From: a virus
DNA length: 64,000 nt
Strand: one strand, 5' to 3'
IMG/VR virus record: IMGVR_UViG_3300048575_000222
Location: 1,778 to 65,777 of that record
Every line of letters starts with the position of its first letter. Position 1 is the first letter of the stretch. Position numbers and translations under genes: made by a program. Below, in pieces: positions 1 to 60,634 of this stretch. Under the pieces are notes generated by a model. That model was not told where the DNA came from, made no database searches, and saw only the letters and a program-made list of their open reading frames with translations.

Positions 1-1917
1 CGAGACGAAATCGCCGCTTTCGGCGCACAGGACAGCACGGTGCGCGACGGGCGAGGGGTGCCAGTGTTCCGAGGTCTACCCGACATCGCCCTGCGCCGGG
101 CGGGGCACGGGTTCGTCTCCCTTCCGACTCGGCGCCGTCTGTACCGTTCCGGCGGGCGCGGCGCTTGGCGACGATCAGCACCGGAGGAGAGCTTCCTCGG
201 CACGCTCGACGTCGCCGCGGAAGAAGACGGGAACGTGGGCGCACGGCTCCGGCTACGAATCCTGCCGCCGGCAGCGCGCTTCTCGATGGATGCCGGGGGC
301 GAGGCGCTGAGCGTCTCCGGCTTGCCTGCCGGCTGGGCCCTGCGGGTGGAAGACGCCACGCCGGCGGTGATCAATGAGGCTGGGTCTGCCCAGGTTCCGC
401 TGCCCGCGGGCGGGGTCCGCAAGGCGCGGCTCCGCCTGCGCGCCGCTGCGCCAGATGGGGCGGAGACGCTGGACTGGCAACTCGCGCTCCCGGCCACGCG
501 GGCCTATCTGGCAGGGCCAGACGGGTCGATCCTTGAGACACAGCGCGAGATCACGCTGCACGATCTGCGCGACTGGCGGGTGCTGCCAGCTCACGTCGGC
601 CAGACCGACCTTAGCCTGCGGCTGGTCGCGCCCGGTCTTGGTGGCATAACGTCGCCGCTGGCCGTCCGCGTCCACGGCGAGGCGCCCCTGTCGAGCATTC
701 GAGACCTTGTGGACGACTTGCTCTCCCATGGCGGGCCGGACGCGGAGGTTCGGCTTCGAGCGCTCGCCGACGGGCACGAGTCGCCCCGACTCCTAGTGCG
801 GCGGTTCCTTGGCGAGACCCATTTGACCGAGGATGGGGTGATCTTGCGAACGCATGGCGCACCGGGTGATGAACGGACGTTGCCCGACCTGGTGGCGATC
901 AACATCGACGCGCCTGGGCCGGCGGTCGCGGCTCCCAACGCGCCGCCGGCGGCGATGGGAAACGTGCTCGGGCCAGGGCGCTGGTTCTTCCTTCCCTCTC
1001 TACACGGACAGCCGCTTCGCCCGCCCCGCCCGCTCGTGGTCGAGCCGGATGCCGGACAAGAGGCGACGACCGATCAAGATGATCGTCTGCATGCCGCCGG
1101 CACCGGACGCACCCGTGCAGCGCGAGTCGAAGCCTATGCGGCGATATTCCGCGACGGGGTCGATGTACAGCACATCATGGCGCTTGAGCGGGCCATAGAC
1201 GCCCTGACGACTCATGGTGCGAGCCCTTCCGCGCTGGACCAGGTGCTGGCGCTTGAACGAGTGTCGGCCGTGGCCGTGCGTCTGCTCGTGAGGGCCGACG
1301 TATCGGACCTGTCGGACCGACTGGAGCTTGAGCGTCACGGCGCACGCCGCTGGGCTTTTGTTGCGCCGCGGGACTGGGGCGCGGCCGTGGCGTCGGAGCT
1401 GGCAAGCCTGACCACTAGCCTCGCTGCGATCCCCGCGCTGGCGGAGCGGGCCGAGACGCTCGCGCGCGAGCAGATGGCGCGACGCGTGCGGGAGATCCTG
1501 ACGCTCCGCCCCGATCTGGACGGGCATCTCGCGCTCGGCCTCATGGAGGCGAGGCTCGCGGCGCACCCCGATCTCATGCACTGGCTCGGGCGTATGCCGT
1601 CAGCGTTCGGGGATCCTGAAGGGACCCTTTTGCGGCTTGCAGACGCGGCCGCGCGGCGCCACGGCGAGAGCGACCTCTCCTTTCCCGACCTGCGCGCGGC
1701 GGCGCAGCCTGCGGCCTTCGTCCGTTTTGCCGATCATGTGAATGGCCTGATCGAGGCGCCGCTATTCGTGTCCGAGGTCGCCTTCGGCCTGCGAGCAGCG
1801 CCGCAGGGCCGCACCGGGGTGCAGCTGTTGCGCTGCATCCACCTAGACCCGAGCCATTTTGACTTGGCGCTCCCGGCCGCGATGGCCTGGCAGGCAATGC
1901 GCCTTTCGCGGAAATAA
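1..1917 (+). CDS. 5'-truncated large hypothetical protein, probably DruH-like (STY4851/ECs_5259-type) partner of the downstream helicase
   Basis: Frame is open from base 1 (RDEIAAFGAQ...) to TAA at 1915-1917, so the true start lies left of the window. It ends 14 nt before a DruE-like helicase. The family assignment rests on context and recalled resemblance only. Confidence 0.55.
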   Translation, partial: RDEIAAFGAQDSTVRDGRGVPVFRGLPDIALRRAGHGFVSLPTRRRLYRSGGRGAWRRSAPEESFLGTLDVAAEEDGNVGARLRLRILPPAARFSMDAGGEALSVSGLPAGWALRVEDATPAVINEAGSAQVPLPAGGVRKARLRLRAAAPDGAETLDWQLALPATRAYLAGPDGSILETQREITLHDLRDWRVLPAHVGQTDLSLRLVAPGLGGITSPLAVRVHGEAPLSSIRDLVDDLLSHGGPDAEVRLRALADGHESPRLLVRRFLGETHLTEDGVILRTHGAPGDERTLPDLVAINIDAPGPAVAAPNAPPAAMGNVLGPGRWFFLPSLHGQPLRPPRPLVVEPDAGQEATTDQDDRLHAAGTGRTRAARVEAYAAIFRDGVDVQHIMALERAIDALTTHGASPSALDQVLALERVSAVAVRLLVRADVSDLSDRLELERHGARRWAFVAPRDWGAAVASELASLTTSLAAIPALAERAETLAREQMARRVREILTLRPDLDGHLALGLMEARLAAHPDLMHWLGRMPSAFGDPEGTLLRLADAAARRHGESDLSFPDLRAAAQPAAFVRFADHVNGLIEAPLFVSEVAFGLRAAPQGRTGVQLLRCIHLDPSHFDLALPAAMAWQAMRLSRK

Positions 1918-1931
1918 GGGAAGACGGCAGA

Positions 1932-4900
1932 ATGAAGGACGGCATCGACACCAACCGCTCGGGCTACGCCGAGGTCCTGGATCGGGTCGCGGAACGCGCC
2001 GCGTCGGCGGTGGTGGCCAAAGGACGTGTCCGCTCGGTCGCCCTGCGCACCGCGCTTTCCGCGCGCCTGCGGGCCGAGCCAGGACAGGCGGACGCGTTCC
2101 TCGCCGACCCGGTGTTCGAGGCCGCGCGGGTCTGGAAACGCGCGGACCGCACGCTGAACGATCTGGCAGGTAGACTTTTGGAAGAGGATCTGGTGGCCGC
2201 ACTAGACGGGGCGCCAAACCGCCGATGGCCACGGCACGGCGCTGAGCACGCGCCCTATCTCCACCAGATGCGCGCCTGGACCGCCGCGGCCGAGGGGCGG
2301 AGCTTTCTCGTCACCAGCGGCACCGGCTCGGGCAAGACCGAGTGCTTCATGGTGCCGATGCTAAACGACCTCCTGCGGCAGTCGCCAGCCGGGCGGCGGC
2401 GGGGCGTGCAGGCCATCGTCCTCTACCCGCTAAACGCTCTGATCGACAGCCAGCGCGAGCGGCTCGGCGAGTGGATTGCGCCCCTGTCGGGTAGGATCAC
2501 CTACGCGCTCTACAACAGACATCTCAAAGAGACGCTGCCACCCCATGAATGGCCCGGCGGCGGGATGGTGCCGGACCGCAAGCGGCTGCGGGAGGATCCA
2601 CCCTCGATTCTCGTCACTAACACCACGATGCTCGAATACATGCTGATGCGGGCTCAGGACGGACCAATCCTCGAGCGTTCGCAGGGCACGCTGCGCTGGA
2701 TCGTGCTGGATGAGGCGCACAGCTACGTCGGCGCGCAGGCGGCAGAGATGGCGCTGCTGCTGCGCCGGGTGCGGGAGGCGTTTGGGGTCGCCCCGGAAGA
2801 CGTTCGTCTCGCTGCGACCTCCGCCACCATCGGCGAAGGACAGGAAACGGCGGCGGCGCTGCGCCGCTTCGTGGCGGACCTGGGCGGCGTGCCGGAGGAT
2901 CGCGTTGAGATCATCGCCGGCGAGGAGCGGGAGCCCGATCTTCCGCCCGAAGGCGATCAAGCGGCGCTCGACCGAGAGGCGCTGGCGGTCCCAGACGAGA
3001 GCCTCTGGCAGATGCTCGCGCCCGATCCTCGGATCCGTGCCGCCCGCGCCCGGATGCGCGACGGGGGGCTGACGCTCGGCGGAGCGACGGGGATCCTCGG
3101 GCTCGGGGATCCGGGCGATCGAGGGGCCCGGCATCAGGCTTTCGCGGTTCTGGAGGCTGCGGCACGGGCGTGTGCTCCCGGATCCGATCTCCGCCTCGCG
3201 CCGTGGCGGCTCCACGTATTCCACCGGGCGCAGGCCGGACTCTGGGCCTGCATCGACCCAGCATGCCCGGATCGCCACCCGGCGCTTTCCACCGAAGGCT
3301 CGGACTGGCCATACGGCCAGGTGCATCTTGAGGAACGAGAGCGCTGTACCTGCAGCGCGCCGGTCTTCGAGGTCGGCGCCTGCGACGAGTGCGGAACACC
3401 CTGGCTCCTCGCTGAACGCTTCGCGCAAGGGGCCCACGAATACCTGACGCAGGCCCGCAGGGGTGACGACGAGGACGAGTACGTGCTCGATGTCGAGCCC
3501 GACCCAAGCCCCGAAGAGGGCGCTGCGGCGACGCCGTCACGCGAGGTTCTGCTCGGCCCCGCGCAGGATAGCGGGGACGACATCGCAGTTCGGCTCACGG
3601 ATGGCGCGTTGCTGAACCGGCCTGAGCCAAGTGACCTTGTTGCGACGCTTCGGATCGTCGAAGAGCATGCCGATCGGGCCTGTTGCGCGCGCGCACACGA
3701 GCCACGCACCGGCGTTCGGCCGCAGACCTTCGGCGCACCGTTCCTGATGGGTAACGCGATGCCCGTGCTCCTTGAGGCCGTGCCGCGCGTCGAGGGCGCG
3801 GGGGCGGCGCCCTTCGGCGGACGGAGGCTCTTGTCCTTTACCGACAGCCGGCAGGGCACCGCGCGGTTTTCGGCCAAGCTCCAGCAAGAGGCCGAGCGCA
3901 ACTTGACCCGCGCCGTGATCACCCATGCCGTGCAAGAGGCCGGCGGGGGCGATCCGGCTAGAGCGGCCGCGCTGCAGGCCGAGATCGAAGGGCTGGAACA
4001 AGCGGTCGTTGCCGTGCCGTCGCTGCGTGGCCTTCTCGAAGAGAAACGGGAGGCGCTCGCTGCGCTGATCGACGGTGCCGGCCGTATCTCCTGGACCGAT
4101 CTGCGCGGTACCCTCGCCGCCAACCCCGAACTGTCGGACTTCGCCGCCGAGGTCTGGCGCGGCCGCCCGCTCGGGGGTGCGCATCTGGCCGACACGCCCG
4201 CCGACCTCGCCGAACTGTTCCTGTTCCGCGAACTCTTCCGCCGGCCACGGCTCCAAAACAACGTCGAGACCATGGGCCTCGCCCGGCTCGTCTTCCCGGC
4301 GCTCGAGGAGCATGCGCGCCTCAAGGTGCCGGCGCCGCTCGCCGAGGCCGGGCACGATACGAAGGTCTGGGCGGACGTCCTCCATGCTGCGGTGGACATC
4401 GTGTTCCGCGCCACCCTCGCCATCGACCTGCCACAGGATCCGGTGGACATGCGCCACTGGATTTCGCCCCGCAGCGCGCTTTCGGCAGTCATGGAGCCTG
4501 GTACGCCGCCTGACGCCGAGAGCCCGGTACGCAGCCCGTCCCGCTTTCCCACTGCCGCCGCGACGCGTGGCAGTCTAGTGCGGCTGCTCTACCGCCTGAC
4601 AGGCGGTGCCCCCGACAACGCGCTAGACGCGGGGCGTGTCGACACCGTCCTCGCGGCGATCTGGACGGCCTTTAGCAGCGCGCGCCTGCTGAGGGCGGCC
4701 GGCCCCTATGCATGGCGGCTAGACCTTCGACGAGCGGAGGTCGCGCGGCTCGACCGCGCCTGGCAATGCCCGCAGACTTGGCGGCTTCTGCCCTTTGCGC
4801 CTGCCGGCGTTTCGCTCAACGCAATCGAGGCCGAGGCCCTGGCTACTCCCGTCGACATGCCGCGCCTGCCAGGGGCAGCGCCTACGGGGCTGACGGCCGA

Positions 4901-7900
4901 GGCGCGGGCGGAGGTCCGGCGCTGGCTCGAAGAGGACGGGAGGGTGGCTTCGCTCCGCAAGCGGGGCCACTGGACCGACATACACGACCGGATTGCTGAG
5001 TTCGCGCCCTTCCTGCGGGCGCAGGAGCATTCCGCTCAGATCGACCGGGCCAGCCTTCAGACGTATGAAGAAGCGTTCAGGAAAGGACGGATCAACATCC
5101 TCAACTGCTCCACCACCATGGAGATGGGCGTCGACATTCCCGACGTGGGCCTCGTGGTGAACACGAACGTGCCGCCGGCGCCTGCCAACTACCGCCAGCG
5201 GGTCGGCCGAGCCGGGCGCCGGGGCGAGCCATGGGCCCTGGCATTCACCTTCTGCAAAGACCTCCCGCTCGACCGCATGGTGTTTCGCGAACCCGCGCGC
5301 CTATTGAAGGGCGCGGTACGCGCGCCGGCGGTGCGGCTCGACGGGCCTGTCCTAATTCAGCGCCATGTCAACGCGCTCCTTCTCGGGATGTACCTGCGCG
5401 GCGAAGGCGGCATCAGGGTGACTACGGGCATCGGTACCTTCTTCGGCGCGACGCCCGATACGGTCTCGCCGTGGCTCCCCGACAGCCCGGCCGAAGGGTT
5501 CCTCGTCGCGCTGCAGGGAGAGTGGGCCGACAGCCTAGCCGTGGCTGAGGCCCTTCAGAACCTCGTTCGTGGAACCGTGCTCGAAGGCAACGCCGCAGTG
5601 ACCGAGCGCGCGGCGGACGCGTTCGACCGGATGCGCGAGCGCTGGATGGCGGAGTATGGGCAGCTCCTGACTGCGCAAGATGCCCATCCGGAGCGTGACC
5701 CCGCTCATGGCTTCTACATGCGGCGCGCAAAGCGGATGCGGGAAGAATTCATGATCTCCGAACTCGCACGCCGTGGCTTCACCCCGGCCTATGGCTTTCC
5801 CGTCGATGTGGTCGCCTTCGACCATGTCGGGCGGACGGGCGGCGAAAGCGGTCCCTCGCGCCCGCTCGACATGGCGATCCGGGATTACTCGCCCGGGGCC
5901 GAGGTGGTCATCGACGGGCTCGTGCACCGCTCCGACGGCATCCTGCCGACTTAGGGCAACAGGAGCGAGCCAGGATCGGTCGAGGACCTGCGCACGCTAT
6001 GGCGCTGTCCGTCCTGCAACGCCTTCGGACTGTCGCGCCTGCCCGTCGACACCTGCCCCGACTGTGGCAGCGGGACACGGCGGGGGGAGCTGCTGCGGCC
6101 GTCCGGCTTTCTCGGCACCAGCAAGCCACATGCAGCCTACGAGACCCTCGCCTTCGTGCCGCCCGACCGCGCCCGCGTGTCGGCGGCAGGCGCGCCATGG
6201 GTCTCGCTCAGCGATCCCGCCACCGGCGCGCTGCGGACCAGCCGAGAAGGCAAGGTGCTTGTGACCTCCTCGGGGCCCGGGGGCGCGGGCTACGCGATTT
6301 GCATAGCCTGTGGCCGGGCCGAGGCTGAGACCGGCGAAGACAGTGAAACGCTGCCGGCGGGTATGCGTAGTCACCGGCCATTGCAGAAACTCCGTGACAA
6401 CCCGCGCGACGACGGGCTTTGCCCGGGCAACGACACGGGCTCGCGCCGGATCCGGCGCAACGTACGGCTTGGCAACGAAGTTTCCACAGATGTGTTCGAG
6501 CTGCGTCTCGAGGCGCTTCAGGCGACCGAGGCGGACCAGGGCCGCGCGCTCGCGATCGGCGCGGCGGTGCGAGAAGCGCTGGCGGAGCGGCTAGGGATCG
6601 ACGCCGAGCTTATGGGTGTCAGCGTCGCTCCGAGCGTTCGCGCGGATGGAGGGCGGCGGTCGTCGTTCTTCCTTTACGATAAGGCGTCCGGCGGCTCTGG
6701 CTTTGCCAACACCGCCGAGACGGATCTTCCCACTCTGCTGACCGCTGCGGCTGAGCGGCTCGACTGTCCCTCGCGCTGCGCTCATGGCTGCCCCGACTGC
6801 ATCCTGCGCCGCGATTTGCAGTTCGACCTCGGGCCGGTGGACCGACCCGGCGCGCTTGAAGCGCTGCGCAGCGAGGTCCTGCCGCGCCTGTCCCTGCCCG
6901 AAGATTTGCAGGTCTTCGGCCCGGCGACGCGGGTGCTCACCGAACCAGTCCCCGACTGGATACGCCGCGCCCTCGCCCAAGGCGGTCTGACCCGCCTCAC
7001 GCTCTTCCTGCACGGCGACGCGACCGGCTGGGACGCCATGGACTGGACTGGCCCCGAACTGCTCGCGGCGGCGCAGCGGTGCGGCGTCGAGGTTGCGCTG
7101 GCGCTGCCTGCTGGGGAAGTGCCAAAGCTAGCCTTCGCGCAGAAGCTCGACCTGGTGCGGGCTGTCGCACGCTCTGGTGGGGCGCTGCGCTCCTGTGCAA
7201 ACCTGCCCATGGCGGGCGGCCTTCCCATCATCGCCGAGCTCGAGGCCGGCGGACGCCATCAGCAGATCGCAACCCCTGCACCGTCGGCTGCAACAGTCGG
7301 ACCAACGTGGGGCGACGTCAGCGTCGCGCCAGCCCTCGTTGGCGCGCACGCTCCGGCCGAGATGGGCCCAGCGCTCTCTCTGGCTAAGCTTGCGGCCTTC
7401 GGCGAAGGTAACAGCGCCCACGTGGACATCCGGCATCAGTTTGACGGACCGGTCGCCGGTTTCGGCAAGGCCTTCTGGAAAGCGGTGGTGCCCCTTCGCC
7501 CGCAGGCCTTCGCGGGCAAGCGTCCGGTAGCTCGTGTCGTGTACAGCGACCGCTACCTGCGCACGCCACTGTCCGTGCGCCTTCTCGCGGGGATCCTGTA
7601 TGCCATGCCGGGCCGGAACGAGGCAACAGCGGTCGAGGTCGTCTCTGAACAGGGCTCCGGAGCCGACCGGGAGCCGCCGCGGGCCCTGCACCACACCTGG
7701 CCGGAGGATACAACGCGCGGCGCCGTCCTGCGCGCGCTGCTGCCCAGCGCCTCGGTGTCGCTCCGACCCAAGGACGCCTGTGCCCACGCCCGGAGCCTGC
7801 GGCTTGACTTTGCCGACGGCACGGCGGTCACGATTCATCTCGATCAGGGTTTGGGCGCTTGGCGCACCCCGGGACGCCCGGTGCGCTTCGACGGCGAGGC

Positions 7901-8000
7901 CGAGCCAGCGCGTCAGGCTGCCGAGTTGATGCGGATCGAGACCGCTGTCGTGATCCAAGGAGAAGGTCAACAGCCCTCGCCGCTCTGGGTAACTTGGTAG
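1932..8000 (+). pseudogene. YprA/DruE-like DEAD/DEAH SF2 helicase with DUF1998-like Cys cluster and C-terminal nuclease/PLD-like domain, interrupted by in-frame TAG at 5952-5954
   Basis: Helicase motifs SGTGSGKT, YPLNAL, LDEAH, ATSAT, STTTMEMGVD and QRVGRAGR lie in 1932-5954. The same frame continues without stops after the TAG (GNRSEPG..CPSC..CPDC) into ORF 6156-8000, which carries CPSRCAHGCPDC and YSDRYL. Total span is 2022 codons. Confidence 0.85.
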
Positions 8001-8584
8001 GGGTGTGATAGGTAGTGAGCCAGAACGACCACAAGGCGCGGATCTTCTTCGATCAGCCCATCCCGAAATCACTGCATCAGGCGATCGGCCGGCAAAGGAC
8101 GATCGATAGCGAAGGTCGGTCGACCAACCGACCGAAGCCTCGAAAAGCGGCACCGCTCCGTTCTGGGCTCGGCCATGCAGGGTGCAAAGCGAAGGACCGG
8201 CGCGAAGACGGAAAGGATGTTCGTCGCAGACACGGGCATCTCGACGACCAAGACCGGAGCCTGCTACACAGTACTTTCACGTCGAATGCACATCGGAAGG
8301 CCGCGTTGCAGATTTCACTTCTTGAAAACCATGTCACATTAATCAGTGAGCCGACGTTGCTACGCCATCGCTCTTGGAAATTCGAATTAGCTCACCGGCG
8401 GCGTCCATATACGCTGCTCGACCAAGTCTTTGGCCGCTGGAGGGGCGAGGGCTGTTCGCACCACGACTTTACCGCGAATCCGCCTACGCACGCACTTCGC
8501 CTGAGAACAGCATCCATTCACATCGTCGAGCGCCAGATCTCTCGCGCTCACATAGCGAAAAAACTCGACTGACGCGGGGCTCAG

Positions 8585-11500
8585 ATGGACGACAACATCC
8601 TACCCGATCCTATGGCCAGCCTTAGCGCAGATCTCGCACAGGAGATATTTCCGATTGCGAGGAGCGATCGGCGAAAGAACAAGGATCTTTTTTTCGATAT
8701 AATCCCGGAGGATCGGCTAAAGAACGACGCTGACTTCTACGACGGCCTCCTCCGCATCATTGCATCAGGAGATCATGCGCGCCTGCGTCGCTATGACGAC
8801 CGTATGAAGCGGTCCGGGGATATGACCAAGACCTTCGGATTTCGCGCACTACGCTGGCTGGTGACCCGATCCGCGGAGGAACTGACTTCTGATGAGATTC
8901 ACGACATTCCGGAGGACCATTTTCCCTTCGGAACACCAGAGCGAGAAGTGCACCGAATCTACCTCGGTCTCGTAGGGATAGATTCATCCATGGCGCCGGT
9001 CTCGCCTGCGGAGGCGGGAGGGAAAGAAGCTCCTTCGGCTCGCGACTGGATGACTCTCGCTCAAGGTCTTGCCGACGGTGCGCAAAGCTTGGATCGGCCC
9101 GACGTCGAAGCGGCCGCGCGCTTGGTAGAGCTGGCCGAGGCGCTGTACGAGGCTTGTCGCACCGCTGCTGCAGCTGACGCTGCGGAGGAGAACATCCGTC
9201 TACGAGCAGACGCCTTGCGTGACCGGCTCATTACACTCGATCCGGATCTGGCCGACGCTTGGCCCGAGGATGCTTCCGCCGAGAGCCTCGACCGGATCGA
9301 GGAAACACTCGCGGAGGCAGAGATTGCTTATCAAGCTGCTCTAGAGGCCGAAAATGCGTTCGAGGCGGCAGATCGTGAGGTGCGCGCTGCTGCAGAGGCT
9401 CGGGCCTACGAGCGTCTCCCAGATTTGTCGTCGTGCGCGAAGGAGCAGGGGATCCAAGCGTATTCGGCTCGCACTGATCGGGATAAGGTATTCGCGGCAC
9501 TGCTTGCGCTACTATCGCAGGAAGAACCAAAGGACACATCCGCAGGAAACGGCACCGAACCTGATTCCGCCAAGGACGAACCCGGGCCGGGATCAATCGC
9601 GGAGGCGGCGTCACCTGAACCGGAGGTCCCGGTGCAGATTGCAAACCACCCGGACGATGCTTCGCCGGACGCGCACGTTCCGCCGGACTTGTCGCCAATT
9701 CCGGAAGGGACGGATCCGGAAGAACTGCTCGCACAGTATCTTTCCGCGGGCGAGATCGCCTTCGCTTGGCATCTGGCGCGGCTTGTAAAGACACCAGTAT
9801 CGGCGCCGATCCTGCGGACGTTGGCGATCCTTCCCGCCATACATCAGCCCGAGGACATGGCGGATCCGAGGCGCAGCAGTGCGCTTGCCGAACTTGCGGC
9901 CGCTTTGCCCGAAGCGACCGATCCCGTCGCCGCGGGGAGGCTAGCCCTAGCAGCGCTGTTGCGCCCGGCCCTGTTCGACCCCGATCACGGAGCCCGCGGC
10001 ATTCTGGAAAACCTCGTTGGCTTGCCGGGGCTCGAAGCACAAGCACCGCTGATCGAGGCGCTCGCCAACCTTGGCTACGATGTGCGGCTGTCGGCTGGAC
10101 TGCTTGCCGAACTTGCCGGGAATCGACCGCCGTCGGCGGAACCGGCCATGCGCAAGCGCCTCGAGGGGTGGTTGGCTGAAGCTCGGCACCGAAAGACGGT
10201 GCATCAGCCGACTTACGCGATATTCCACAGAGAGCTTCACCAAGAGGGTGAGATTGGACGTGTCGCCGAGGCTGTGTTGGCCGGGGCCGAGAACGCAGAG
10301 GCGCTTGCGCAGGATCTGATCGACAGGCTTGCCCATGATAGGAATGCGCAGGAGGCTTTCGTTTCCGAAGCCGAACGGCGCAGTGGCCGCCCAAGACGGG
10401 ACCGGATCGAAGGCATGGCGCTCGATTGGTTTTGTCGAGGGATTCAGGAGGCCTGCGATCAATTCGCCGACTGGATTGAAGCGCGGCGCCAGGATGCTCG
10501 GCTGACGCAGGATCACAGCCGCGAGCGGCTGCTGCGCGCTCTTGGACCCGTACGAAAGGCCCTGGACATTCGCGTTAGCGGGCCGACCGAAGGCGAAGGG
10601 AAACTTGCCGAAGCTTCTGGTCTCGTTCTGGCCGACAAGCTCGACGATTTGCGGAAACTCATCGAAGGTCGGGCGGCACTTTCGGTCACGCCGCGCATTC
10701 AGGATCTGCTCGAATCCCCGCTACTGCGACTGCCCGGCGGTTGTCAGGACTGGACCGAGGATGACGGTCCTGCCTTTGATTCCGAGCGTGCGTTGCGCGA
10801 TCGTCGCCTTGCCGCCGCTCTCGTTAGGCCGGAGTTGATTGCACCGAACGTATCCCTTGCATTCGACGCGAGGCTGAAAGAGACGGCGGTGCTCGCCGCG
10901 CAACGCCTCCTAGACCGACTGCATGAGAGCGACCTACCCAAAAATCAATACGATTCCGGACGGCAGCAGCTCGACGAGGTGCTTGAAGCTGCCCGCCGAA
11001 AGGCGCGCGAGCGTGTGGCACGTCTTCGGCAATCCTTGACGACGATCGGTTACCTTGATCTCGACGCTGCAACAACGCTACCCGGTGATCTGTCACGACT
11101 CGCCCTCATCGATTCCGCCTTGGTCGCCTCGGACAAGGGTGACGACGTGATGTTGCCGGCACTGAACAGAATTCGACGGCCTGATCTGCCGCCAGATTTT
11201 CCAGAACTCGATTCCCTCCTTGCCGAGATGGAAGTGCGCCGGGACCGTCTGCAGGAGCAGATTGCCGAGCGTCAGCGGCTGGAACTGGAACGGCTCATGG
11301 CCTTGCCACAGGGGGAATCGGCGCGGGAGCTTCTCGCGGTCTTCGACCGCTTGGATCCAGTTACTGCCGACGACGCGATCGCCGAGATCAAGGCGGGACG
11401 AGCGGTCCCGATGCCAGAAGTTGCTGTTCCCGATGTTTTTGCCCGATTCTTTCCCGGCTTTGTCGCTGACATCGCGGCAGAACCTGAAGAGACCAAGCGA

Positions 11501-14122
11501 GGGCGAATTCAGGCTGCCTTGGAAACGCGAGGATCGGCTGGGCCAATCAACCTGGCAAGCATCGACGAGCGGCGCGCCCGCAGGCTCAAGCAGCTTCTAG
11601 AATCTTGGGGTCAGGGAGAGAACGCGCTGCGGCAGAGCCAGCCTGCTCGGCTGCGCGAGGCTTTGGCGAAGCTGTTCGAGTTGATCGGATTCAGTGGAGT
11701 GCGCCTTGCCGACGGGCGCGAAGCCCTGCCTGGACGGCTTCGGCTGCTGACGATGAACTGCGATGTGCCGCGCCGGGCAGACGGCTTCCTTCCCCCCGCG
11801 TTCGGCAGTGTCGCGGGCGGACGCTATCAACTGCTAGCGGCACGCGCGGATGTGCCCATCGACCAGCTCCTGCGCCAAATCGGAAGCGAAGCCCCCGATG
11901 CGCCTTGGATCGTTGTGCTATTCAACAGGCTTGACGTCAAAGATCGTCAACGCCTTGCACGCCAGATGAGGTCCGAGGCGCGTTCAGCTGTCTTTCTCGA
12001 CGAACCGCTTCTGCTCTTCGCGGGTCTCGAAAGCGACGATACGCTCGCAACTCTTTTCGATTGTGCGATGCCCTTTGCATGGGTTCAGCCGTATACGATC
12101 AGCCCCGGCCGGATTCCGCCCGAGATCTTTTTCGGTCGCGAGGCCGAGATCGACCGGATCGTTTCTCGCAACGCAGAGGGTTGCCTGATCTACGGCGGTC
12201 GGCAGTTGGGCAAGTCGGTTCTTCTCAACCACATTCGCGGAGAGCGGCATCGGCCGGAGCGCGGCGAACTGGCGCTCTATCTCGACATCAGGTCTATCGG
12301 AGGGCCAGGTGTGCCGGCCGAGGGCATCTGGCAATCACTTGCTCATGAATTGCGCAGGTTCGCGGAATTTCAGGAGATCGAGTCCGACCCCAAGGAACTG
12401 GTTGCTGCAGTTGAGACCTGGCTCGACCGCGACCCCGCACGTCGTCTGCTTGCAATGTTCGACGAGGCCGACAACTTCCTGCGCACCGAACATGCCGCCG
12501 GGTATCCCCACCTCCTGCCGCTCAAGGGGCTCATGGAGAGGACCGGACGGCGCTTCAAGGCGGTATTCGCGGGCCTGCACAATGTCCGACGGATGGCGCG
12601 GGCGCCAAACTCACCGCTGCCGCATCTTGGCGAGCCAATCTGCATTGGGCCTATGAACCAGAGCCCCGCAAACCGTACCGCTCTACGGCAGCTCGCGGTT
12701 GAGCCGATGCGCGCGGCCGGTCTTGACTATTCCGAACAGGAACTCGTTTCGGACATGTTGGCGCGAATGAACTACTATCCATCTCTTGTGCAGGTCTTTG
12801 GCTGGCAGATCGTTGAAAGCTTCGGCAGGCGGCCGCGCGCAGGCAACGTTGGACCGCGCTGGAAATTGGACCGAGAGAGCCTTTTCGAGGGCGCTGCTGC
12901 GGAGAGGATCGCCGATCAGATCCGCGATCGCTTTCAGTTAACGCTGAACCTCGATGTCCGTTACGACTGTATTGCCCGCTCAATCGCGCTGCACCGGCTC
13001 GAAGCGGCAGGCGGCGACAACAAGGTTCTGGCACAGGGGCTGACGGCAGCCGAGATTCGCAGGATCACACATTGGCCGAAGGCGCTCGCTCAACCAGCGA
13101 TGACTGATTTCGAGGAACTCCTTGAGGAGCTGGTAGATCTTGGCATCCTCAGCCGGTTTCCCGACAAACGGTATGGGTTGCGAAATGCCCAAGTGGCGCA
13201 GATGTTGGGGCGGCAAGAGGAACTGGAGGACGCTCTCCTTCGGCTCGACGAACGTGAGGACGACCCCGCATACGACGCGGCGCTATTTTTCCGGTTGCTC
13301 GCGCCCGAAATACCCGGTGCGCGCGCCCCTCTATCCGACCGTGACCTCGACAGAGTGTTTGATCGGCGCGTTCCCGGTATACGTTTGGTCCGATCTTCTG
13401 CTGCGATTGTCGGTGGTGATGTCGCGGGCCGCGTTCTTGCTGCAGCACGTCTCTGGCTGCCCGAAGGCAACCATATCCGAACCAAGAGCGACGACGCGCA
13501 GGTCCGGCGCGCGCTTGACAGGGTCAAGACAGGACCTGCGGCTCTTGTGATTGAGGGTGATTGGTCGCCTTCTTCCGCGGCGCAGCTCGCCCGCCAACCG
13601 AAGGTCGAGCGGGGAGACGTGCTGCCGATCTGGTGCGTGTCGCATGTCACTTCACCTGCGGATGGGATGATCGTCTTTGATGCTGGTGCGTGGTCCGAGG
13701 CGATGCTGCGGCATTGGCTGGCAGACGAGGGCTTCGTTCCAGCTCTGGACGATGCGCCAACGCGAGCTGCGCTCATGGCTGCAACGGGCGGAGCGCCGGC
13801 CCGTCTGGAGGCGCTTCGCCATTTCCTGTCGGACCTGGCGGTTCGACCGGTCGCTGGCCGTGCCGAGGATCTTGCAGACTGGGCGGCGAAAACGCCGCTG
13901 TCAGCGGAATCTTTGGGTCTTGATCAAGCCGACTTGAATTGCCTGAACACGCTTCACCAACTTGAGGACCTCGATCCGTCGCTCGCGGATTTCTTGGGCG
14001 AGTGTCCCGACGCGACTGCGCAAAGGCTGGAACGCCTCGCCACCTTCGGAACACTTCGCCAAGGGCGGACACCCGACGCTGCACCGATCCTCACCCCGCT
14101 GGGCAGACTGTTCGCTGAATGA
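8585..14122 (+). CDS. 1845-aa multidomain protein with a STAND-like P-loop ATPase and long helical N-terminal region
   Basis: FFGREAEI pre-P-loop, Walker A GGRQLGKS, Walker B LLAMFDEAD, NYYPSLVQ helical-domain motif, and a winged-helix-like LVDLGIL segment. A second TGGAP motif occurs near the C-terminus. Confidence 0.85.
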   Translation: MDDNILPDPMASLSADLAQEIFPIARSDRRKNKDLFFDIIPEDRLKNDADFYDGLLRIIASGDHARLRRYDDRMKRSGDMTKTFGFRALRWLVTRSAEELTSDEIHDIPEDHFPFGTPEREVHRIYLGLVGIDSSMAPVSPAEAGGKEAPSARDWMTLAQGLADGAQSLDRPDVEAAARLVELAEALYEACRTAAAADAAEENIRLRADALRDRLITLDPDLADAWPEDASAESLDRIEETLAEAEIAYQAALEAENAFEAADREVRAAAEARAYERLPDLSSCAKEQGIQAYSARTDRDKVFAALLALLSQEEPKDTSAGNGTEPDSAKDEPGPGSIAEAASPEPEVPVQIANHPDDASPDAHVPPDLSPIPEGTDPEELLAQYLSAGEIAFAWHLARLVKTPVSAPILRTLAILPAIHQPEDMADPRRSSALAELAAALPEATDPVAAGRLALAALLRPALFDPDHGARGILENLVGLPGLEAQAPLIEALANLGYDVRLSAGLLAELAGNRPPSAEPAMRKRLEGWLAEARHRKTVHQPTYAIFHRELHQEGEIGRVAEAVLAGAENAEALAQDLIDRLAHDRNAQEAFVSEAERRSGRPRRDRIEGMALDWFCRGIQEACDQFADWIEARRQDARLTQDHSRERLLRALGPVRKALDIRVSGPTEGEGKLAEASGLVLADKLDDLRKLIEGRAALSVTPRIQDLLESPLLRLPGGCQDWTEDDGPAFDSERALRDRRLAAALVRPELIAPNVSLAFDARLKETAVLAAQRLLDRLHESDLPKNQYDSGRQQLDEVLEAARRKARERVARLRQSLTTIGYLDLDAATTLPGDLSRLALIDSALVASDKGDDVMLPALNRIRRPDLPPDFPELDSLLAEMEVRRDRLQEQIAERQRLELERLMALPQGESARELLAVFDRLDPVTADDAIAEIKAGRAVPMPEVAVPDVFARFFPGFVADIAAEPEETKRGRIQAALETRGSAGPINLASIDERRARRLKQLLESWGQGENALRQSQPARLREALAKLFELIGFSGVRLADGREALPGRLRLLTMNCDVPRRADGFLPPAFGSVAGGRYQLLAARADVPIDQLLRQIGSEAPDAPWIVVLFNRLDVKDRQRLARQMRSEARSAVFLDEPLLLFAGLESDDTLATLFDCAMPFAWVQPYTISPGRIPPEIFFGREAEIDRIVSRNAEGCLIYGGRQLGKSVLLNHIRGERHRPERGELALYLDIRSIGGPGVPAEGIWQSLAHELRRFAEFQEIESDPKELVAAVETWLDRDPARRLLAMFDEADNFLRTEHAAGYPHLLPLKGLMERTGRRFKAVFAGLHNVRRMARAPNSPLPHLGEPICIGPMNQSPANRTALRQLAVEPMRAAGLDYSEQELVSDMLARMNYYPSLVQVFGWQIVESFGRRPRAGNVGPRWKLDRESLFEGAAAERIADQIRDRFQLTLNLDVRYDCIARSIALHRLEAAGGDNKVLAQGLTAAEIRRITHWPKALAQPAMTDFEELLEELVDLGILSRFPDKRYGLRNAQVAQMLGRQEELEDALLRLDEREDDPAYDAALFFRLLAPEIPGARAPLSDRDLDRVFDRRVPGIRLVRSSAAIVGGDVAGRVLAAARLWLPEGNHIRTKSDDAQVRRALDRVKTGPAALVIEGDWSPSSAAQLARQPKVERGDVLPIWCVSHVTSPADGMIVFDAGAWSEAMLRHWLADEGFVPALDDAPTRAALMAATGGAPARLEALRHFLSDLAVRPVAGRAEDLADWAAKTPLSAESLGLDQADLNCLNTLHQLEDLDPSLADFLGECPDATAQRLERLATFGTLRQGRTPDAAPILTPLGRLFAE

Positions 14123-15117
14123 CGGCAGATCCGGATCCGTGGAGTCTGCCAGGCCTCGGCAGGTGGCTTAATGACTTAGCGCGGCGGCTCGATCATGGAA
14201 TCGCCGTGCTTCCTTCGGACCCGAGCCGTCCGCCCGGCGTCGAGGCAGCGCTAAGGGCTCACCTACGGCATCCGCCCGTCGAGTTCCGCGCGGATATTGG
14301 CCAGTCCCCCGCCGCCGCCGTGGCTGATGCCTTCGGTACCGCGCCAACGCTCGAGGCGCTGCTCAATCCAGTACTGGACGAGGAACTCGGTATCATATCG
14401 CTCTCGGAAATCGGACCAAATGACGTGGCAGTTTGGTCTGTATTCCTGGAGCGTTTTGCGGCTGCCCGTGCTTCGGGGCGCGCCGGCCCAGCGTTGCTGG
14501 TGACCGACATACCGGCGGACCTGGCTATTCCGGCCGAGGCAATGCCTCAGAACTGGCAGAAAGGGCTGCGCCGGGGAGACCGAGTGATCTGGGCAGAAGA
14601 GCATCTTCCCGCAACGCGCGACGGCTTGGCCGGAGAATTGGCAGTAGTGCTCGCAGTGGAGCTGTGTGCTTGGCGGCTGGACCTCGCGGCGTCGCTGGTA
14701 CAGGCTGGTCTCGATGACTTGGCCGATCCAGTAGCGTGGCTTTCGCGCCGCGCCGAGGCCCCGATCCTTGGACAAGAGACCCCATGCCCGCTAGCCATTC
14801 TCGCCGGTCAGCGAAAGAGCGAAATACAGCAGCGCATCTGGAAGGCCCAGTTGACAGCTTTGTTTCCCGAGATCGAGAGTAGACGACTTGAGATTGTGGC
14901 AGCGCATCGGAGCCGGCTAAGGCTCGATGATCATCTGCGTGGCCTCGGTGTGGCCTCAATCGAAGAAATTGAGCTGGGTGCGCTTCGTTTTCAGTTACGC
15001 GGGGCTCTGACCCGACAAGAGACCGATCGGCTTGATGTGCTTGTGCGGGCACGCAATGCACTCGCCCACCGCCAACCTGTGCCTCCTGAAGATGCACTAA
15101 GACTCCTTCGCAACTGA
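14119..15117 (+). CDS. 332-aa hypothetical protein, translationally coupled to the STAND-like ATPase
   Basis: ATGA start/stop overlap at 14119-14122, long ORF and composition similar to the upstream gene. No intact Walker motifs. Confidence 0.8.
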   Translation: MTADPDPWSLPGLGRWLNDLARRLDHGIAVLPSDPSRPPGVEAALRAHLRHPPVEFRADIGQSPAAAVADAFGTAPTLEALLNPVLDEELGIISLSEIGPNDVAVWSVFLERFAAARASGRAGPALLVTDIPADLAIPAEAMPQNWQKGLRRGDRVIWAEEHLPATRDGLAGELAVVLAVELCAWRLDLAASLVQAGLDDLADPVAWLSRRAEAPILGQETPCPLAILAGQRKSEIQQRIWKAQLTALFPEIESRRLEIVAAHRSRLRLDDHLRGLGVASIEEIELGALRFQLRGALTRQETDRLDVLVRARNALAHRQPVPPEDALRLLRN

Positions 15118-15283
15118 AATCTGGCGACGCCTCGATCCATTTCGGTTGCGACCTCGGCTAGCAGGCCCAGCTCTTTTTCTACTATTTGGCGTGTCGCATC
15201 CGCAATTAATGACGAGACACTAACCGATCAGGTTTCGCGTCGATACCGCAGGCATTAACTTGCGGGGCGCTCGAATACCTCCC

Positions 15284-16360
15284 TCAGCCGACCTTGCAGC
15301 CCCAGAAGGACGTGTGATCGGCGGCGAAGTAGCCGTCCGCGACCCGGAAATACCCCTGCAGCTCGACGGTATCGCCCGCGGTCAACGGGACCATCGTCTG
15401 CAGCCAGATCGCGGTGGCGAGCGAAACGTGGGTGGCGGAGATTTCGCCGAGGGAGCCGCGGATTTCGGTGGTGCCGTTCAGCACGAGTCGCCCGCGCATG
15501 CGGGCCGTGGCGCTGGCGTTGATCTTGTAGAGCAGCGTCGCGCCGAAGAGGTAGGTGCCGTCCATGGGGGCGACGAAGTGATTGTTGGCAGCGTCGAAGG
15601 CGCCCTGGTCGTTGTAGTCGGTGTTGTTGAGGCCGATCTTCGTCCAGGTCCCAACGCCGACATAGTTGTCGTAGTTCGTGTAGGCCTTGAAGCGGGGCAG
15701 CCGGGGCTGGTCGACGATGCCGGTGGCGTTGTCCACGCTCAGCCCATCGAAAAAGGTGCTGCCGTCAGCGGAGACCGCGAGGCGGAAGCGGTCCGAGCCG
15801 AAGAGCCCCACCAGCGCCTTGGTCACGAAGTTGGTCTGCAGCGTCAGGCCGAGATCGTCGCCGGCGGCCTCCTTGTTCATGGTGTAGAACAGGTCGCCCG
15901 TGCCGCCTTCGGCCACGGTCCTGGCGGTCCAGAGCGCGGCGTTCAGCTTGGCCGAGAACGGGTTCGACGCATCCGCTGTGGTGCCGACCCCGAGCAGCGC
16001 CATGTTCTGCAGCGCCGCCGGTGTGGTGCCGACCCAGCCCGCGCCGTCGTAGACCAGCAGCAGCCCCTCGTCCTCGACCCATGCGCGCCACCCCGTCCGC
16101 GGCGGCATGCGCAGCCATGCCCCGTCCGTCCAGAGTGCCACGTTAAGGTCCCAGCCCGCCCAGTCGCCCGTCGCGCCCGAAGCGACGATGTAGCGATCGC
16201 CGTCGGCGGGGCTCGCCGGGGGTGCTTCCAGATCGCGGTCGAGAACCGAGAGCTGGACGAGCCCGTCGAGGATCCGCAGCGCCTCATTGTGGGTGACATG
16301 CTTCTGGGCCTGCGCCGCGAGGATGTAGGGCAGCAGCAGATGGGTCGTGGCGTCGGACAT
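15284..16360 (-). CDS. DUF2793-domain tail fibre/tip protein with C1q-like C-terminus
   Basis: N-terminus MSDATTHLLLPYILAAQAQKHVTHNEAL is typical of DUF2793. The C-terminal FxAP.DGTYLF segment is C1q-like. Last gene of the tail operon. Confidence 0.85.
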   Translation of the reverse strand: MSDATTHLLLPYILAAQAQKHVTHNEALRILDGLVQLSVLDRDLEAPPASPADGDRYIVASGATGDWAGWDLNVALWTDGAWLRMPPRTGWRAWVEDEGLLLVYDGAGWVGTTPAALQNMALLGVGTTADASNPFSAKLNAALWTARTVAEGGTGDLFYTMNKEAAGDDLGLTLQTNFVTKALVGLFGSDRFRLAVSADGSTFFDGLSVDNATGIVDQPRLPRFKAYTNYDNYVGVGTWTKIGLNNTDYNDQGAFDAANNHFVAPMDGTYLFGATLLYKINASATARMRGRLVLNGTTEIRGSLGEISATHVSLATAIWLQTMVPLTAGDTVELQGYFRVADGYFAADHTSFWGCKVG

Positions 16361-16371
16361 GGGCGGTCTCC

Positions 16372-16405
16372 AGAACGAAGAACGCCGCCTGCATGGCAGG
16401 CGGCG
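16372..16405 (-). terminator. Putative intrinsic terminator upstream of DUF2793
   Basis: Perfect 10-bp stem CGCCGCCTGC/GCAGGCGGCG (16383-16392 and 16396-16405) with a 3-nt loop, followed on the minus strand by TTCTTCGTTCT, an imperfect U-tract. Confidence 0.5.
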
Positions 16406-16435
16406 GACAATGGCGCGGTGATCGGCGGTGGCGAG

Positions 16436-16816
16436 CTACCCGCGCTCGGGCGTCTCCGCCGGAATGGCCGAGAGAACCGGATCGGGCTTGGGCGCGTCCC
16501 ACTTCGCGGTCATTGCGGCCCAGCGATCGATCTCGGCCCGGAAGGCCGGATCGTCGATCCGTAGATGAAAGGTGTAGAGGCGATCCACGATCTCGCGCAT
16601 CAACGCGCGCATCTCGTCGTCATTGATCCGCGAGACCTCGGACCAGGGTATGCGTCGGCCCACGGCGTCCTCCACGATGACGTCGCTGCCATCACCCGTG
16701 TGCGAAACGGGCGTGAGGCCGGCATGCAGGGTCTCGAGCTGCGTGTTTCGCACGCAGGCAACGGCCATCACTCTGGCAAGCTTGGCGGCAATCCGGTCTT
16801 CGTCCTCGGCGCGCAT
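16436..16816 (-). CDS. 126-aa hypothetical protein inserted in the tail operon (moron-like)
   Basis: Protein-like ORF filling the gap between the tail-tip gene and DUF2793, followed by a hairpin. Confidence 0.7.
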   Translation of the reverse strand: MRAEDEDRIAAKLARVMAVACVRNTQLETLHAGLTPVSHTGDGSDVIVEDAVGRRIPWSEVSRINDDEMRALMREIVDRLYTFHLRIDDPAFRAEIDRWAAMTAKWDAPKPDPVLSAIPAETPERG

Positions 16817-16869
16817 GGCCCGAGCCTACGACGCCGATCGCGCATAGTGCCAGAACTCATTGCGCTACC

Positions 16870-44431: not shown

Positions 44432-44730
44432 GGTCCCAACCTCCGAGCGCGTGGTCCCAACCTTCGAGGGGGTTGGGACAAGCCTTTATTGTTTTACTCC
44501 AATGGCTTGAACGGATGCGGTCCCAACCTCGGTTTCCCCAACGGGGGTCCTTCTCTTTTCGTATAGAAAAACATGTTCCCGACCTTTTCCGTTCTCCCAC
44601 ATGAATGTGTAGCAAAAGGTTGGGACCACAAGGCGAGGTTGGGGACACCGTTGTTTTTGAACGGCTTTTCGTGTCCCCAACCTCCTCGGGAGGTTGGGAC
44701 AGGGTTGGGACTACTGGGGAGGTTGGGACA
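44432..44730. repeat. About ten GGTTGGG(G)AC/GTCCC(C)AACC direct and inverted repeats; putative replication origin iterons
   Basis: Copies near 44432, 44452, 44471, 44520, 44619, 44636, 44675, 44691, 44703 and 44720, with an AT-rich core at about 44555-44575. Confidence 0.65.
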
Positions 44731-45001
44731 GACGATCCGGCAGCCATGTAATCCACGGTGCCTTGAAGCCGGAAGCAAGCCGGTGTTCGACCAAGACGTC
44801 ACTGGACTGAGTGCAGGTGTATCGGCAGCTGCTTGCTGCCGTGTCGACCTCGGCTGTCAGGGAGAAAGCCAAATCCGGTATGCGAACACATCGCCGCTTG
44901 TTACTATATCTGGGAGTGCGAAGAGGGTCTCTCCTCAACGCGTTGTAGCCTTAGGGTTTGGAAATGCGAGTATTGGCGTGCCAATCGAAGAAGTTGCCGT
45001 G

Positions 45002-48000: not shown

Positions 48001-48169
48001 GGGGCGCAACGGAGCTTTCCTTATCGGCGGTGCTTCAATGCCCCAAGATGTCAGGCCACCTGAACTGCGGAAGGAAACCACGATCCTCAAGAGGCACCTG
48101 CGGGTGGCGCGGCACGAGGATCTGGAAGAGTACGAAGTCGGTTTTCTTGGCGGCTCGAAGGGAGTCTAG
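45002..48169 (+). CDS. 1055-aa protein with N-terminal restriction-endonuclease (PD-(D/E)xK)-like domain and long helical region; candidate anti-phage effector
   Basis: FERFARAL..GGGDGKVD..FAFSTK..FFVTS..EILDRNWI motif order. Lower GC than its flanks and on the opposite strand. Start at ATG 45002 inferred; the ORF extends to 44573. Confidence 0.75.
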   Translation: MIDEVPSPSEFMRMRRPEQFSDSSERSLYRLSRDVLEQRLETLTARNDMQAFERFARALCERFVCPFLKPATGPEGGGDGKVDTESIRTAEEVVERHFEGRADRGNERWGFAFSTKRDWKAKARADVAGMVGTRRGYKTAFFVTSRYARSKDRSELQDALAAEHGILVEILDRNWIVDNVIEKDARDLAYIHLGIGEKVEESKIGPRDRERRERLASLDRDLEAPDRAAEAPLAVVKCALDAAILSRELERPRYETDGRFERAIRLADRHGADRHSLAARYEKLWTALHWFDDIGAVRDGYRDIEERALALNHASAIERATNLLFGLSGPFAQATSDGVDVDVQAAWERLEASLESMWNDETLPNNRLTARTLLLMRGIMVDLAASDLSSIETRLSQIIEIIDAARGLMEYDFDRLEQLVEMLGETLGGNATLSRVVDHLGDALQQRRGETARGMLFLRRARQLDIERDRFEVIRRLGTVVECLTKEEHLDELVEAAYLLAVAYRGAGLPWAARATALFGLSAIVIQAEKSSVPPSEILPTFLLLGWIDLELGLVAELLDVVAVSRGILGSLPFDEDSKNRARETLQTFDFSLGGKFLNAREADLSAFQSLPDVLMAIELPAASTCLLYALGHEDEALGPAIEDRATNLEMLAQLSAQPACALPRHGLIGEFDGPFAFTTDVLGLQLTISGDKGARCALVAQLLISMAETLLATGFEAGFAAHRERYEVRVVLSDVIAAPFPKFDETASQDLLEWPADWNPAEPRTASDARDALLTTVAYIIGQTCILKDGTESLETLLDSDTAISRIMTSLGLGVSMSRVLKETPVTPASIADHFRADPPRPFPFRAVLPLPEVSAPEGPTSGDTTDQPFGAIRSHRELKTRSLIDVPLWNAAKWRGVAVMKLSLVGLPILALMFENSDAGYRIFEAWRERLGSEDEAGELLVTIVTDLPGRPRSHYAVILTTNLEARPVIGEMFFVVARSLIMEPSSGENLQLFLRDWGRNGAFLIGGASMPQDVRPPELRKETTILKRHLRVARHEDLEEYEVGFLGGSKGV

Positions 48170-60185: not shown

Positions 60186-60634
60186 CGACCCACGATCCCA
60201 TTCCCGCTCGCCTGGCTGCGCTGAAGACCGCCACGACGCCTGAACTGAAGGCGCAGTGGCGTGATCTGTTCGACAGCGAGCCGCCGCCGTTCAACCGACG
60301 CTACCTGGAGAGCCGGCTGGCCTATCGCATCCAGGAACTCGCCTATGGCGGGCTGAAACCCGAGACCGTCCGGCGGCTGGAGCGGCTCGGCGAGGAACTG
60401 GACGGCGGCGACCGAAAGAAGAGCCGCGTCCGCGCCGACGCCATGCCCATCGCCGGCACGCGGCTGATCCGCGAATGGCAGGGTTTCGAGCACGTCGTCA
60501 CCGTGACCACGGACGGCTTCGAGTGGCAGGGACGGCCCTACAGGTCGCTATCGGCCATCGCCCGTGCCATCACTGGCACGCGCTGGAACGGCTGGGTGTT
60601 CTTCGGCCTGAAGAACCGGAGGGCGCGGACATGA
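60182..60634 (+). CDS. DUF2924-domain protein
   Basis: LAYRIQELAYGGL, GTRLIREWQG and SLSAIARAITGTRWNG motifs. Confidence 0.9.
   Translation: MTTHDPIPARLAALKTATTPELKAQWRDLFDSEPPPFNRRYLESRLAYRIQELAYGGLKPETVRRLERLGEELDGGDRKKSRVRADAMPIAGTRLIREWQGFEHVVTVTTDGFEWQGRPYRSLSAIARAITGTRWNGWVFFGLKNRRART

Follow-up and report, generated by a model that had tools for sequence, protein, structure and literature searches.

The 64,000-nucleotide (nt) stretch analyzed in this study (the window), positions 1,778 to 65,777 of IMG/VR virus record IMGVR_UViG_3300048575_000222, contains a pair of genes encoding a giant ATPase of 1,845 amino acids (aa) and a partner of 332 aa, which together form a widespread cassette, not described before, whose parts are of known kinds. 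The cassette probably represents a new module of defence or else Druantia in an extended form, and its operonic link to type III Druantia is strong and previously unpublished. We infer that it has a role in defence, that the partner has RNase activity, that the two proteins bind each other, and that they are coupled to Druantia. On balance a self-contained two-gene anti-phage cassette is favored, in which the giant would be an ORC/STAND-type switch driven by nucleoside triphosphates (NTPs) and would control a HEPN RNase in the partner.

Druantia III has been studied intensely as a minimal two-protein system (2026 preprints), and it has an alphaproteobacterial branch with one or two further large genes that are unnamed in databases. 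Because the partner family alone comprises about 2,250 representatives at 50% identity, the blind spot in defence annotation is sizeable. If the favored reading is true, the cassette would be another ORC/STAND-type switch coupled to a HEPN RNase, and it would offer a tractable case of two defence layers in one operon, here carried by a temperate phage.

A conserved gene pair

An earlier note, made from the sequence alone, had described the giant and partner open reading frames (ORFs) and their ATGA coupling, and these were confirmed. The giant ORF (P0001) spans 8585-14122 and the partner ORF (P0002) 14119-15117, both on the + strand, and the 4-nt ATGA overlap between the giant stop and the partner start suggests translational coupling. 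The block holding the two genes has a guanine plus cytosine (GC) content of 0.60-0.63, compared with approximately 0.70 in the surrounding DNA. Direct repeats were sought at the flanks of this low-GC block and none were found. An Rfam scan of positions 1-17000 gave no RNA family, a promoter search gave no sigma-70-like site, and terminator-like sites were no commoner than chance.

Neither protein matched a Pfam, PADLOC, or NCBIfam model at E <= 0.01. The giant has 260 database relatives, mostly of 1,850-2,090 aa and all either unnamed or called 'AAA family ATPase'. The partner has 44 close homologues, and a profile search over all proteins gave a family of 2,248 representatives at 50% identity, 495 of which matched the profile at E <= 1e-30, nearly all at full length. 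Giant and partner are genuine, conserved genes, since homologues are plentiful and the AlphaFold models are confident: predicted local distance difference test (pLDDT) scores were 89.1 for giant aa 1040-1845 (AlphaFold2 (AF2) model m393949eed373; predicted template modeling score (pTM) 0.80) and 94.9 for the partner (model mb24e91a6220d; pTM 0.89). Modeling and Foldseek searches had been proposed as a check on the pair, and they returned ATPase_2 and AAA+ matches.

Domains of the giant protein

Giant aa 1168-1543 (12086..13213; this and all following domains of the two proteins are on the + strand) correspond to an ATPase_2/ORC-type NTPase with a lid and a winged helix, as judged by VIA and Foldseek. 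The best VIA match of this unit is 2qen (Z 18.8, root mean square deviation 4.5, 321 of 350 residues, model residues 129-504), followed by 2fna (Z 17.1), and the Foldseek match has an E of 9.5e-8. The STAND/ORC-type ATPase core and the winged helix that had been read from the sequence are thus both borne out, the first by the fold match to 2qen and the second by the near full-length matches to 2qen and 2fna. The next VIA neighbors are NLR resistosomes (14.9), MuB (14.1), Orc1/Cdc6 (14.0 and 13.8), TnsC, BrxC (12.3), CED-4, and Avs3 (11.5).

Conservation was examined in alignments of 16 and then 50 relatives. The Walker A motif GGRQLGKS (aa 1204-1211; 12194..12217) has G, G, R, G, K, and S in 50/50 homologues and Q and L in 49/50, and Walker B (D1293-E1294; 12461..12466) is invariant in all 50, so that the two motifs are intact as the earlier note had claimed. 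Asn1333 and Arg1336 likewise show little or no variation across the 50 sequences, and the lid motif NYYPSLVQ is conserved in the family. Such conservation of these two residues and of the Walker motifs makes it very probable that the first unit is an active NTPase. Pfam models are approached by the window giant without their cut-offs being reached, with 24.8 bits for nSTAND1 (cut-off 27.1), 14.0 for nSTAND6 (27.7), and 13.5 for ATPase_2 (PF01637; 33.2), as well as a weak, sub-threshold match to AAA_16. Relatives of the giant match AAA_22, AAA_16, and ATPase_2, with PF01637 at E <= 0.01 in 6/16.

A second, degenerate AAA+-like unit lacking Walker A follows at aa 1564-1776 (13274..13912; VIA, model residues 525-737), with Z 9.9 to both the NSF D2 domain (1d2n) and Rubisco activase (4w5w). 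A TGGAP motif in a degenerate second NTPase-like unit had been suspected, and TGGAP is indeed a conserved lid motif of this unit (aa 1734-1738), with G1735, G1736, and P1738 kept in 48-49 of the 50 homologues. The helical tail with short strands in the AF2 model (aa 1777-1845; 13913..14119) differs between the partner-bearing and partner-less groups described below, and tblastn matches to partner-less loci stop near aa 1739.

Upstream of the NTPase, the giant is conserved from aa ~380 onward, through to the C-terminus. The first 379 residues (8585..9721) are a variable Ala/Glu-rich N-terminus and a Pro/Glu/Asp-rich linker; almost no conserved columns occur before aa ~394, with Y52 the one near-invariant position in the 16-relative alignment. 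The conserved blocks of aa 380-1039 (9722..11701) form a candidate sensor or scaffold. With a distant homologue of 23% identity (locus L067), hhalign gave an alignment of 1,333 columns that begins at aa ~377 and ends at aa ~1750 (E 1.3e-96). Pfam gave no lead for aa 380-1040, nor did aa 400-1040 yield a usable match in an Atlas feature search, and nothing meaningful came from PDB sequence searches in which the queries were the giant segment, a profile of it, and the profile of the partner. Immediately before the P-loop, the secondary structure of the AF2 model has an alpha/beta domain at aa 1040-1165 (11702..12079), with a conserved FLPPxFGS loop and a conserved D1139-E1140 at a strand end in the 50 relatives. 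An alpha/beta segment in this position had been noted as a possible restriction-endonuclease-like fold. The segment is present, but D...(D/E)xK is not conserved, and the nuclease idea is therefore without motif support.

Domains of the partner protein

The partner had been described as a possibly inactive P-loop-type fold, which is consistent with its N-terminal part but overlooks a C-terminal HEPN-like domain with an Rx4H motif. The HEPN-like domain is all-helical and covers aa 228-332 (14800..15114), with the motif R312-N-A-L-A-H317 at 15052..15069. Among 47 partner sequences R312 is invariant and N313 and H317 are each kept in at least 90%, and Rx4H is present in 34/34 partners derived from loci, including the distant L054, L056, and L057. 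The HEPN_Swt1 model is matched by 21/47 family members (best E 3.1e-4), the window partner scoring 14.9 bits against a cut-off of 27.5, and other members match the HEPN-type families DUF4145, RiboL-PSP, MAE_28990, ApeA, and Abi_2. A language-model Atlas search gave a 'Swt1-like HEPN' cluster at 0.92. The partner resembles Swt1-like HEPN proteins in having Rx4H within a C-terminal helical domain, although the matches lie under Pfam cut-offs; aa 228-332 are likely a member of the HEPN superfamily and a predicted RNase.

The first 225 residues (14119..14793) are an AAA+-like alpha/beta domain and lid without a P-loop, similar to clamp-loader delta-prime. Fold searches covered aa 1-240: the top Foldseek matches were clamp-loader subunits, P-loop-less delta-prime first and then gamma (E 2.7e-3, probability 0.93-0.96), and all top VIA matches were AAA+/STAND chains with middling Z of 8.7-7.9. 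The sequence has no Walker A, and the model points to an AAA+-like fold for aa 1-240. The partner appears to share with delta-prime (HolB; 3glh_E, 1jr3_E, 1a5t) the three-domain AAA+ layout lacking a P-loop, but the Foldseek E is only about 3e-3 and the TM score about 0.3. Over its full length the partner fold is matched only by Atlas clusters without a name, which come from Actinomycetota (TM 0.83, 329 residues) and Bacillota. We know of no protein that joins clamp-loader-like AAA+ and Swt1-like HEPN domains.

A detectable duplication of the second AAA-like unit of the giant was considered as the source of the partner and rejected, as profile comparison with the C-terminal part of the giant revealed no homology. 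A complex prediction with giant aa 1179-1845 and the partner scored 0.00, which counts neither way on binding.

Association with type III Druantia

The earlier note had placed the pair beside another defence locus and had proposed a neighborhood analysis. That locus is a type III Druantia, DruH-DruE (three ORFs), directly upstream, and the relationship is more than adjacency, with an apparent shared operon and co-divergence with DruE. Related loci, 58 in number and from contigs at one genome per species, were scored by tblastn. The DruE helicase is directly upstream of the giant on the same strand in 40/58 loci and within 10 kb in two more. Two forms of the operon occur. In form A (15 loci and the window) the order is DruH(YjiT)-DruE(~2,020 aa)-giant-partner. 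In form B (25 loci) a first gene of about 1,000 aa and a DruE-like helicase of about 1,650 aa, lacking the C-terminal nuclease part, precede the giant; the partner is absent and no conserved gene follows. The helicase is upstream of the giant in 25/25 loci scored as form B. Two other partner-less loci, L051 and L053, have no helicase upstream and are outside these 25. Fusion of the partner to the giant in form B was rejected, as the giant C-termini stop at an equivalent position and there is no conserved downstream gene.

PADLOC, Pfam, and BLASTP showed no similarity of the first form B gene (L004:1999-5037, L036:290-3295) to DruH/YjiT. The gene may be a DruH analogue that has gone unrecognized, but the label 'Druantia III-B' is unjustified for these operons, which are called Druantia-like here because their first gene lacks similarity to DruH. 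No PADLOC Dru model (DruA-H, DruM) matched the giant (P0001), the partner (P0002), or the proteins P0067, P0104, and P0116.

DruE and the giant overlap or are separated by 1-105 nt in most loci, and their GC at third codon positions (GC3) is matched. Distances in the DruE and giant trees agree, with a Mantel r of 0.94 overall, 0.97 for form B, and 0.51 for form A; 0/2,000 permutations reached the observed r in each case, though relatedness inflates such figures. The giant gene is patchy, being present in 5/401 genomes in a census of the order centered on the Amaricoccus genome. All five giant-bearing genomes have a DruE-like gene, compared with 17/401 overall (hypergeometric ~7e-8, uncorrected for relatedness), leaving 12 DruE-bearing genomes of the order without the giant. 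Given this patchy distribution, the agreement of the trees indicates that the two genes travel together, and in alphaproteobacteria the giant usually follows DruE directly, seemingly as part of one operon.

In Tabrizicola soli (L002, 1-19102) a BrxR-type WYL regulator precedes the four-gene operon, and a reverse-transcriptase gene and then phage tail and lysis genes follow it.

The cassette apart from Druantia

The pair is found without Druantia in L001 and L063-L065; in Pikeienuella it is behind an HNH (HNH_2) gene. In L063-L065, from Neomegalonema, an Azospirillaceae metagenome-assembled genome (MAG), and Hasllibacter, the pair stands alone among housekeeping genes, and the cassette is therefore separable from Druantia. 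A giant ATPase also comes before the distant partners of L067, where the two genes overlap by 4 nt, and L068, where 9 nt separate them. The distant cassette of L067 (1-11134) is beside a DUF499 ATPase and a UvrD helicase; that of L068 (1236-13641) has an HNH gene on one side and a CBASS operon (S_4TM and SMODS) on the other. Further contexts in some loci include BrxR, reverse transcriptase, and Cas genes, as well as plasmid toxin-antitoxin genes and an integrase.

The lineage of the window (the window, L005, L006, and L007) has a DruE-giant spacer of approximately 585-630 nt and GC3 values of 0.80 for DruE and 0.65 for the giant, and it is placed differently in the giant tree than in the DruE tree. 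The ATPase module was apparently exchanged recently in this lineage, to judge from composition and tree position.

Two homologues differ in architecture. In Halovulum marinum (L027:10001-15226 / L066:10001-15199) giant aa 1-1470 and the C-terminal ~210 residues of the partner are in one ORF beside an IS110 transposase; this ORF is probably a deletion derivative. The giant homologue of the Hasllibacter MAG (L065:10001-17038) is called at 2,345 aa with an N-terminal EamA (membrane transporter) match, and it is either a fusion or has a mis-called start.

Comparison with known systems

The claim that no named system has this layout is upheld: the proteins lack Pfam, PADLOC, and NCBIfam matches, and no published description of the cassette was found in the portions consulted of the Druantia, BREX, and STAND literature. 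The portion consulted of a survey of bacterial STAND receptors likewise contains nothing like the giant-partner pair (PMC13581612). The closest published parallel is an analysis of the DUF499/BrxC ATPases, in which Druantia, DruE, and YprA are unmentioned (PMC12839542). These ORC/STAND-type ATPases have AAA+ and then winged helix-turn-helix, alpha+beta, and winged helix-turn-helix domains and act beside a helicase-nuclease; DUF499 often bears a HEPN domain, read as a backup suicide effector (PMC12839542). BrxC/PglY and DUF499 (HmaC), defence ATPases of the BREX and BR/Hma systems, resemble the giant in their large size and in having winged-helix and alpha/beta domains after an ORC/STAND-type AAA+ domain (PMC12839542). 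BrxC is also a fold neighbor of the giant (9zdx_A, Z 12.3), but the likeness is limited to the AAA+ core, and the giant matches neither Pfam DUF499 nor PADLOC BrxC. The NTPase of the giant comes after about 1,170 residues, while that of BrxC/DUF499 is N-terminal. Unlike BREX-type systems, the cassette has no methyltransferase or PglZ; unlike in DUF499, HEPN here is on a separate AAA+-like protein; and the linked helicase is DruE, of the YprA family, rather than the Snf2-like helicase of BREX-related systems.

The best structural matches to the NTPase-lid-winged-helix unit, the archaeal ATPase_2 proteins PabY2304 (2qen) and SSO1545 (2fna), are stand-alone proteins of about 350 aa, unlike the giant. 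Avs and NLR-like STAND sensors, as the giant, combine a P-loop NTPase and a winged helix in a very large protein, and resistosomes from wheat and Arabidopsis (Z 14.9) and Avs3 (Z 11.5) match it. The layout is nevertheless atypical for Avs-type sensors. The giant has its non-catalytic region of about 1,170 residues at the N-terminus and not, as a repeat sensor, at the C-terminus; a degenerate AAA+-like unit and then a short helical tail come after the NTPase, the predicted effector is encoded separately, and no PADLOC Avs model matches. Druantia type III is in an apparent operon with the giant in 40/58 loci and diverges along with it. Both type III-A and type III-B are described in the Druantia III papers and the YprA-family analysis as two genes only, DruH and DruE, with no such ATPase mentioned, while here there are one or two further large genes. 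The Druantia III systems of E. coli, Pseudomonas, and Mycolicibacterium protect as two genes, according to published accounts.

Proposed function and alternative explanations

In the favored reading, the task of sensing an infection signal, or of serving as a scaffold, would fall to giant aa 380-1040 and to the alpha/beta domain that precedes the P-loop, and nucleotide binding by the NTPase-lid-winged-helix unit, followed by the degenerate AAA+-like unit, would shift the assembly state of the protein. The partner would dock onto the giant through its P-loop-less AAA+-like domain and deliver the HEPN domain with its intact Rx4H. HEPN RNases work as dimers; assembly would therefore activate RNA cleavage by pairing two HEPN domains, and this cleavage would arrest the infected cell. 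Downstream of DruH-DruE the cassette might act as a second, RNA-directed layer or might be triggered by the same DNA intermediates. The invariant NTPase motifs, the fold match to 2qen, the conserved Rx4H, the giant-partner order kept in distant versions, the pairs that stand apart from Druantia, the defence and mobile contexts, the patchy distribution, the low GC, and the published DUF499/BrxC parallel all support a self-contained cassette. Several points weigh against it: form B has 25 loci without any HEPN protein, so the giant must have a HEPN-independent role; the three stand-alone loci have housekeeping neighbors only; the domain order of the giant is unlike that of characterized STAND sensors; and the HEPN family matches of the partner are all under the Pfam gathering score.

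The main rival makes the giant, alone or together with the partner, an additional subunit that a three- or four-gene Druantia subtype cannot do without; it would regulate or load DruE/DruH on phage DNA and would have no activity of its own. ATPases of the ORC, MuB/TnsC, and BrxC types do likewise on DNA, and such a subunit would account well for a DruE directly upstream in 40/58 loci with short spacers and matched GC3, for the Mantel r of 0.94 overall and 0.97 in the partner-less group, for the DruE-like gene in every one of the five giant-bearing genomes of the order, and for form B, which has a helicase upstream in 25/25 loci and no HEPN protein. An obligate subunit is rather unlikely all the same, since the pair is alone in L001 and L063-L065 and distant lineages have other neighbors, the ~585-nt spacer and GC3 mismatch of the window lineage and the r of only 0.51 in form A suggest exchange of the module, 12 DruE-bearing genomes of the order are without the giant, and Druantia III is functional as two genes in E. 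coli, Pseudomonas, and Mycolicibacterium. An obligate subunit and a self-contained cassette may both be true in different branches. Tentatively, Druantia may be functionally extended by the giant, joined by the HEPN partner in the loci that have one; this would define new three- and four-gene subtypes, in which the ATPase would read DNA intermediates made or bound by DruE/DruH and the four-gene form would release the RNase as an abortive back-up. If true, DNA-directed non-abortive and RNA-directed abortive defence would be coupled in a single operon.

Two further explanations concern the activity of the partner and the role in defence itself. That the partner is a non-catalytic adaptor, with effector activity in the giant (aa 380-1165) or in DruE, is improbable. 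The partner-less group manages without a partner, the HEPN matches are sub-threshold, and the giant has about 800 conserved residues lacking an assigned function; but the Arg and His of Rx4H are kept wherever examined across a family of >2,000 representatives, a retention that would be difficult to account for if the residues served neither catalysis nor ligand binding, and no catalytic motif is evident in giant aa 380-1165. Least probable is a function other than defence, either as a selfish addiction module or as an ORC/MuB/TnsC-like AAA+ protein with which a mobile element replicates, partitions, or chooses its target. The fold neighbors Orc1/Cdc6, MuB, and TnsC fit such a function, as do the mobile contexts (prophage, plasmids, and insertion sequence elements) and the loci with housekeeping neighbors only. 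However, a consistent link to any transposase, replication, or partition gene is lacking; the steady neighbors are a helicase of a defence system and, where the partner occurs, a protein with a HEPN motif, and the conserved size of 1,800-2,100 aa is unseen in ORC/MuB/TnsC-like families.

Druantia genes and prophage surroundings in the window

The window begins within DruH, the start of which falls upstream of the window edge; the C-terminal part (YjiT family) is at 40..1917 on the + strand (PADLOC DruH3, E 6.5e-15; NCBIfam YjiT_fam, E 1.5e-19). The type III-A-like DruE helicase follows at 1932..8000 on the + strand and has DEAD, Helicase_C, and MZB domains (Pfam). One in-frame amber TAG at 5952-5954 divides it into pieces of 1,340 and 614 codons, which match PADLOC DruE3 (PDLC00037) with 1432 and 459 bits. 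The close relatives L005 and L007 have TGG (Trp) at this position and an intact frame of 2,022 codons, and the TAG of this record is therefore either one nonsense change or a sequencing error. Judging by the interrupted frame, the Druantia of this record is probably inactive, and with DruE cut by a nonsense codon the cassette may be the sole working half of the island here. The DruE-giant spacer of 584 nt (8001..8584), where GC falls, contains no Rfam family. A 17-nt inverted repeat, 94% complementary, has its arms at 7969-7985 and 8440-8456 and spans the DruE end and the spacer.

Downstream of the pair, from about 15.2 to 62 kb (window 15284-62000), is a prophage with a gene transfer agent (GTA)-type tail module. 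Its genes include those for a tail fiber, a GTA-type host-specificity protein, tape measure, major head, protease, portal, large terminase, and primase-helicase, and a serine integrase at 60475-61956. Since prophage genes fill this region and the record (73,979 bases) is a virus contig of IMG/VR, the defence genes are located at, or just past, the tail-fiber end of a temperate phage. Prophage attachment sites were sought and not located, and there are no tRNA genes across the whole window. The tail and lysis genes of the Tabrizicola soli locus L002 are homologous to those adjoining the island in the window. A general tie of the cassette to phage tail genes was rejected, as it is shared by the Tabrizicola soli loci only. 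Inside the prophage, a 1,198-aa ORF without a PHROG match (44573-48169) lies in a second low-GC block (0.58-0.61).

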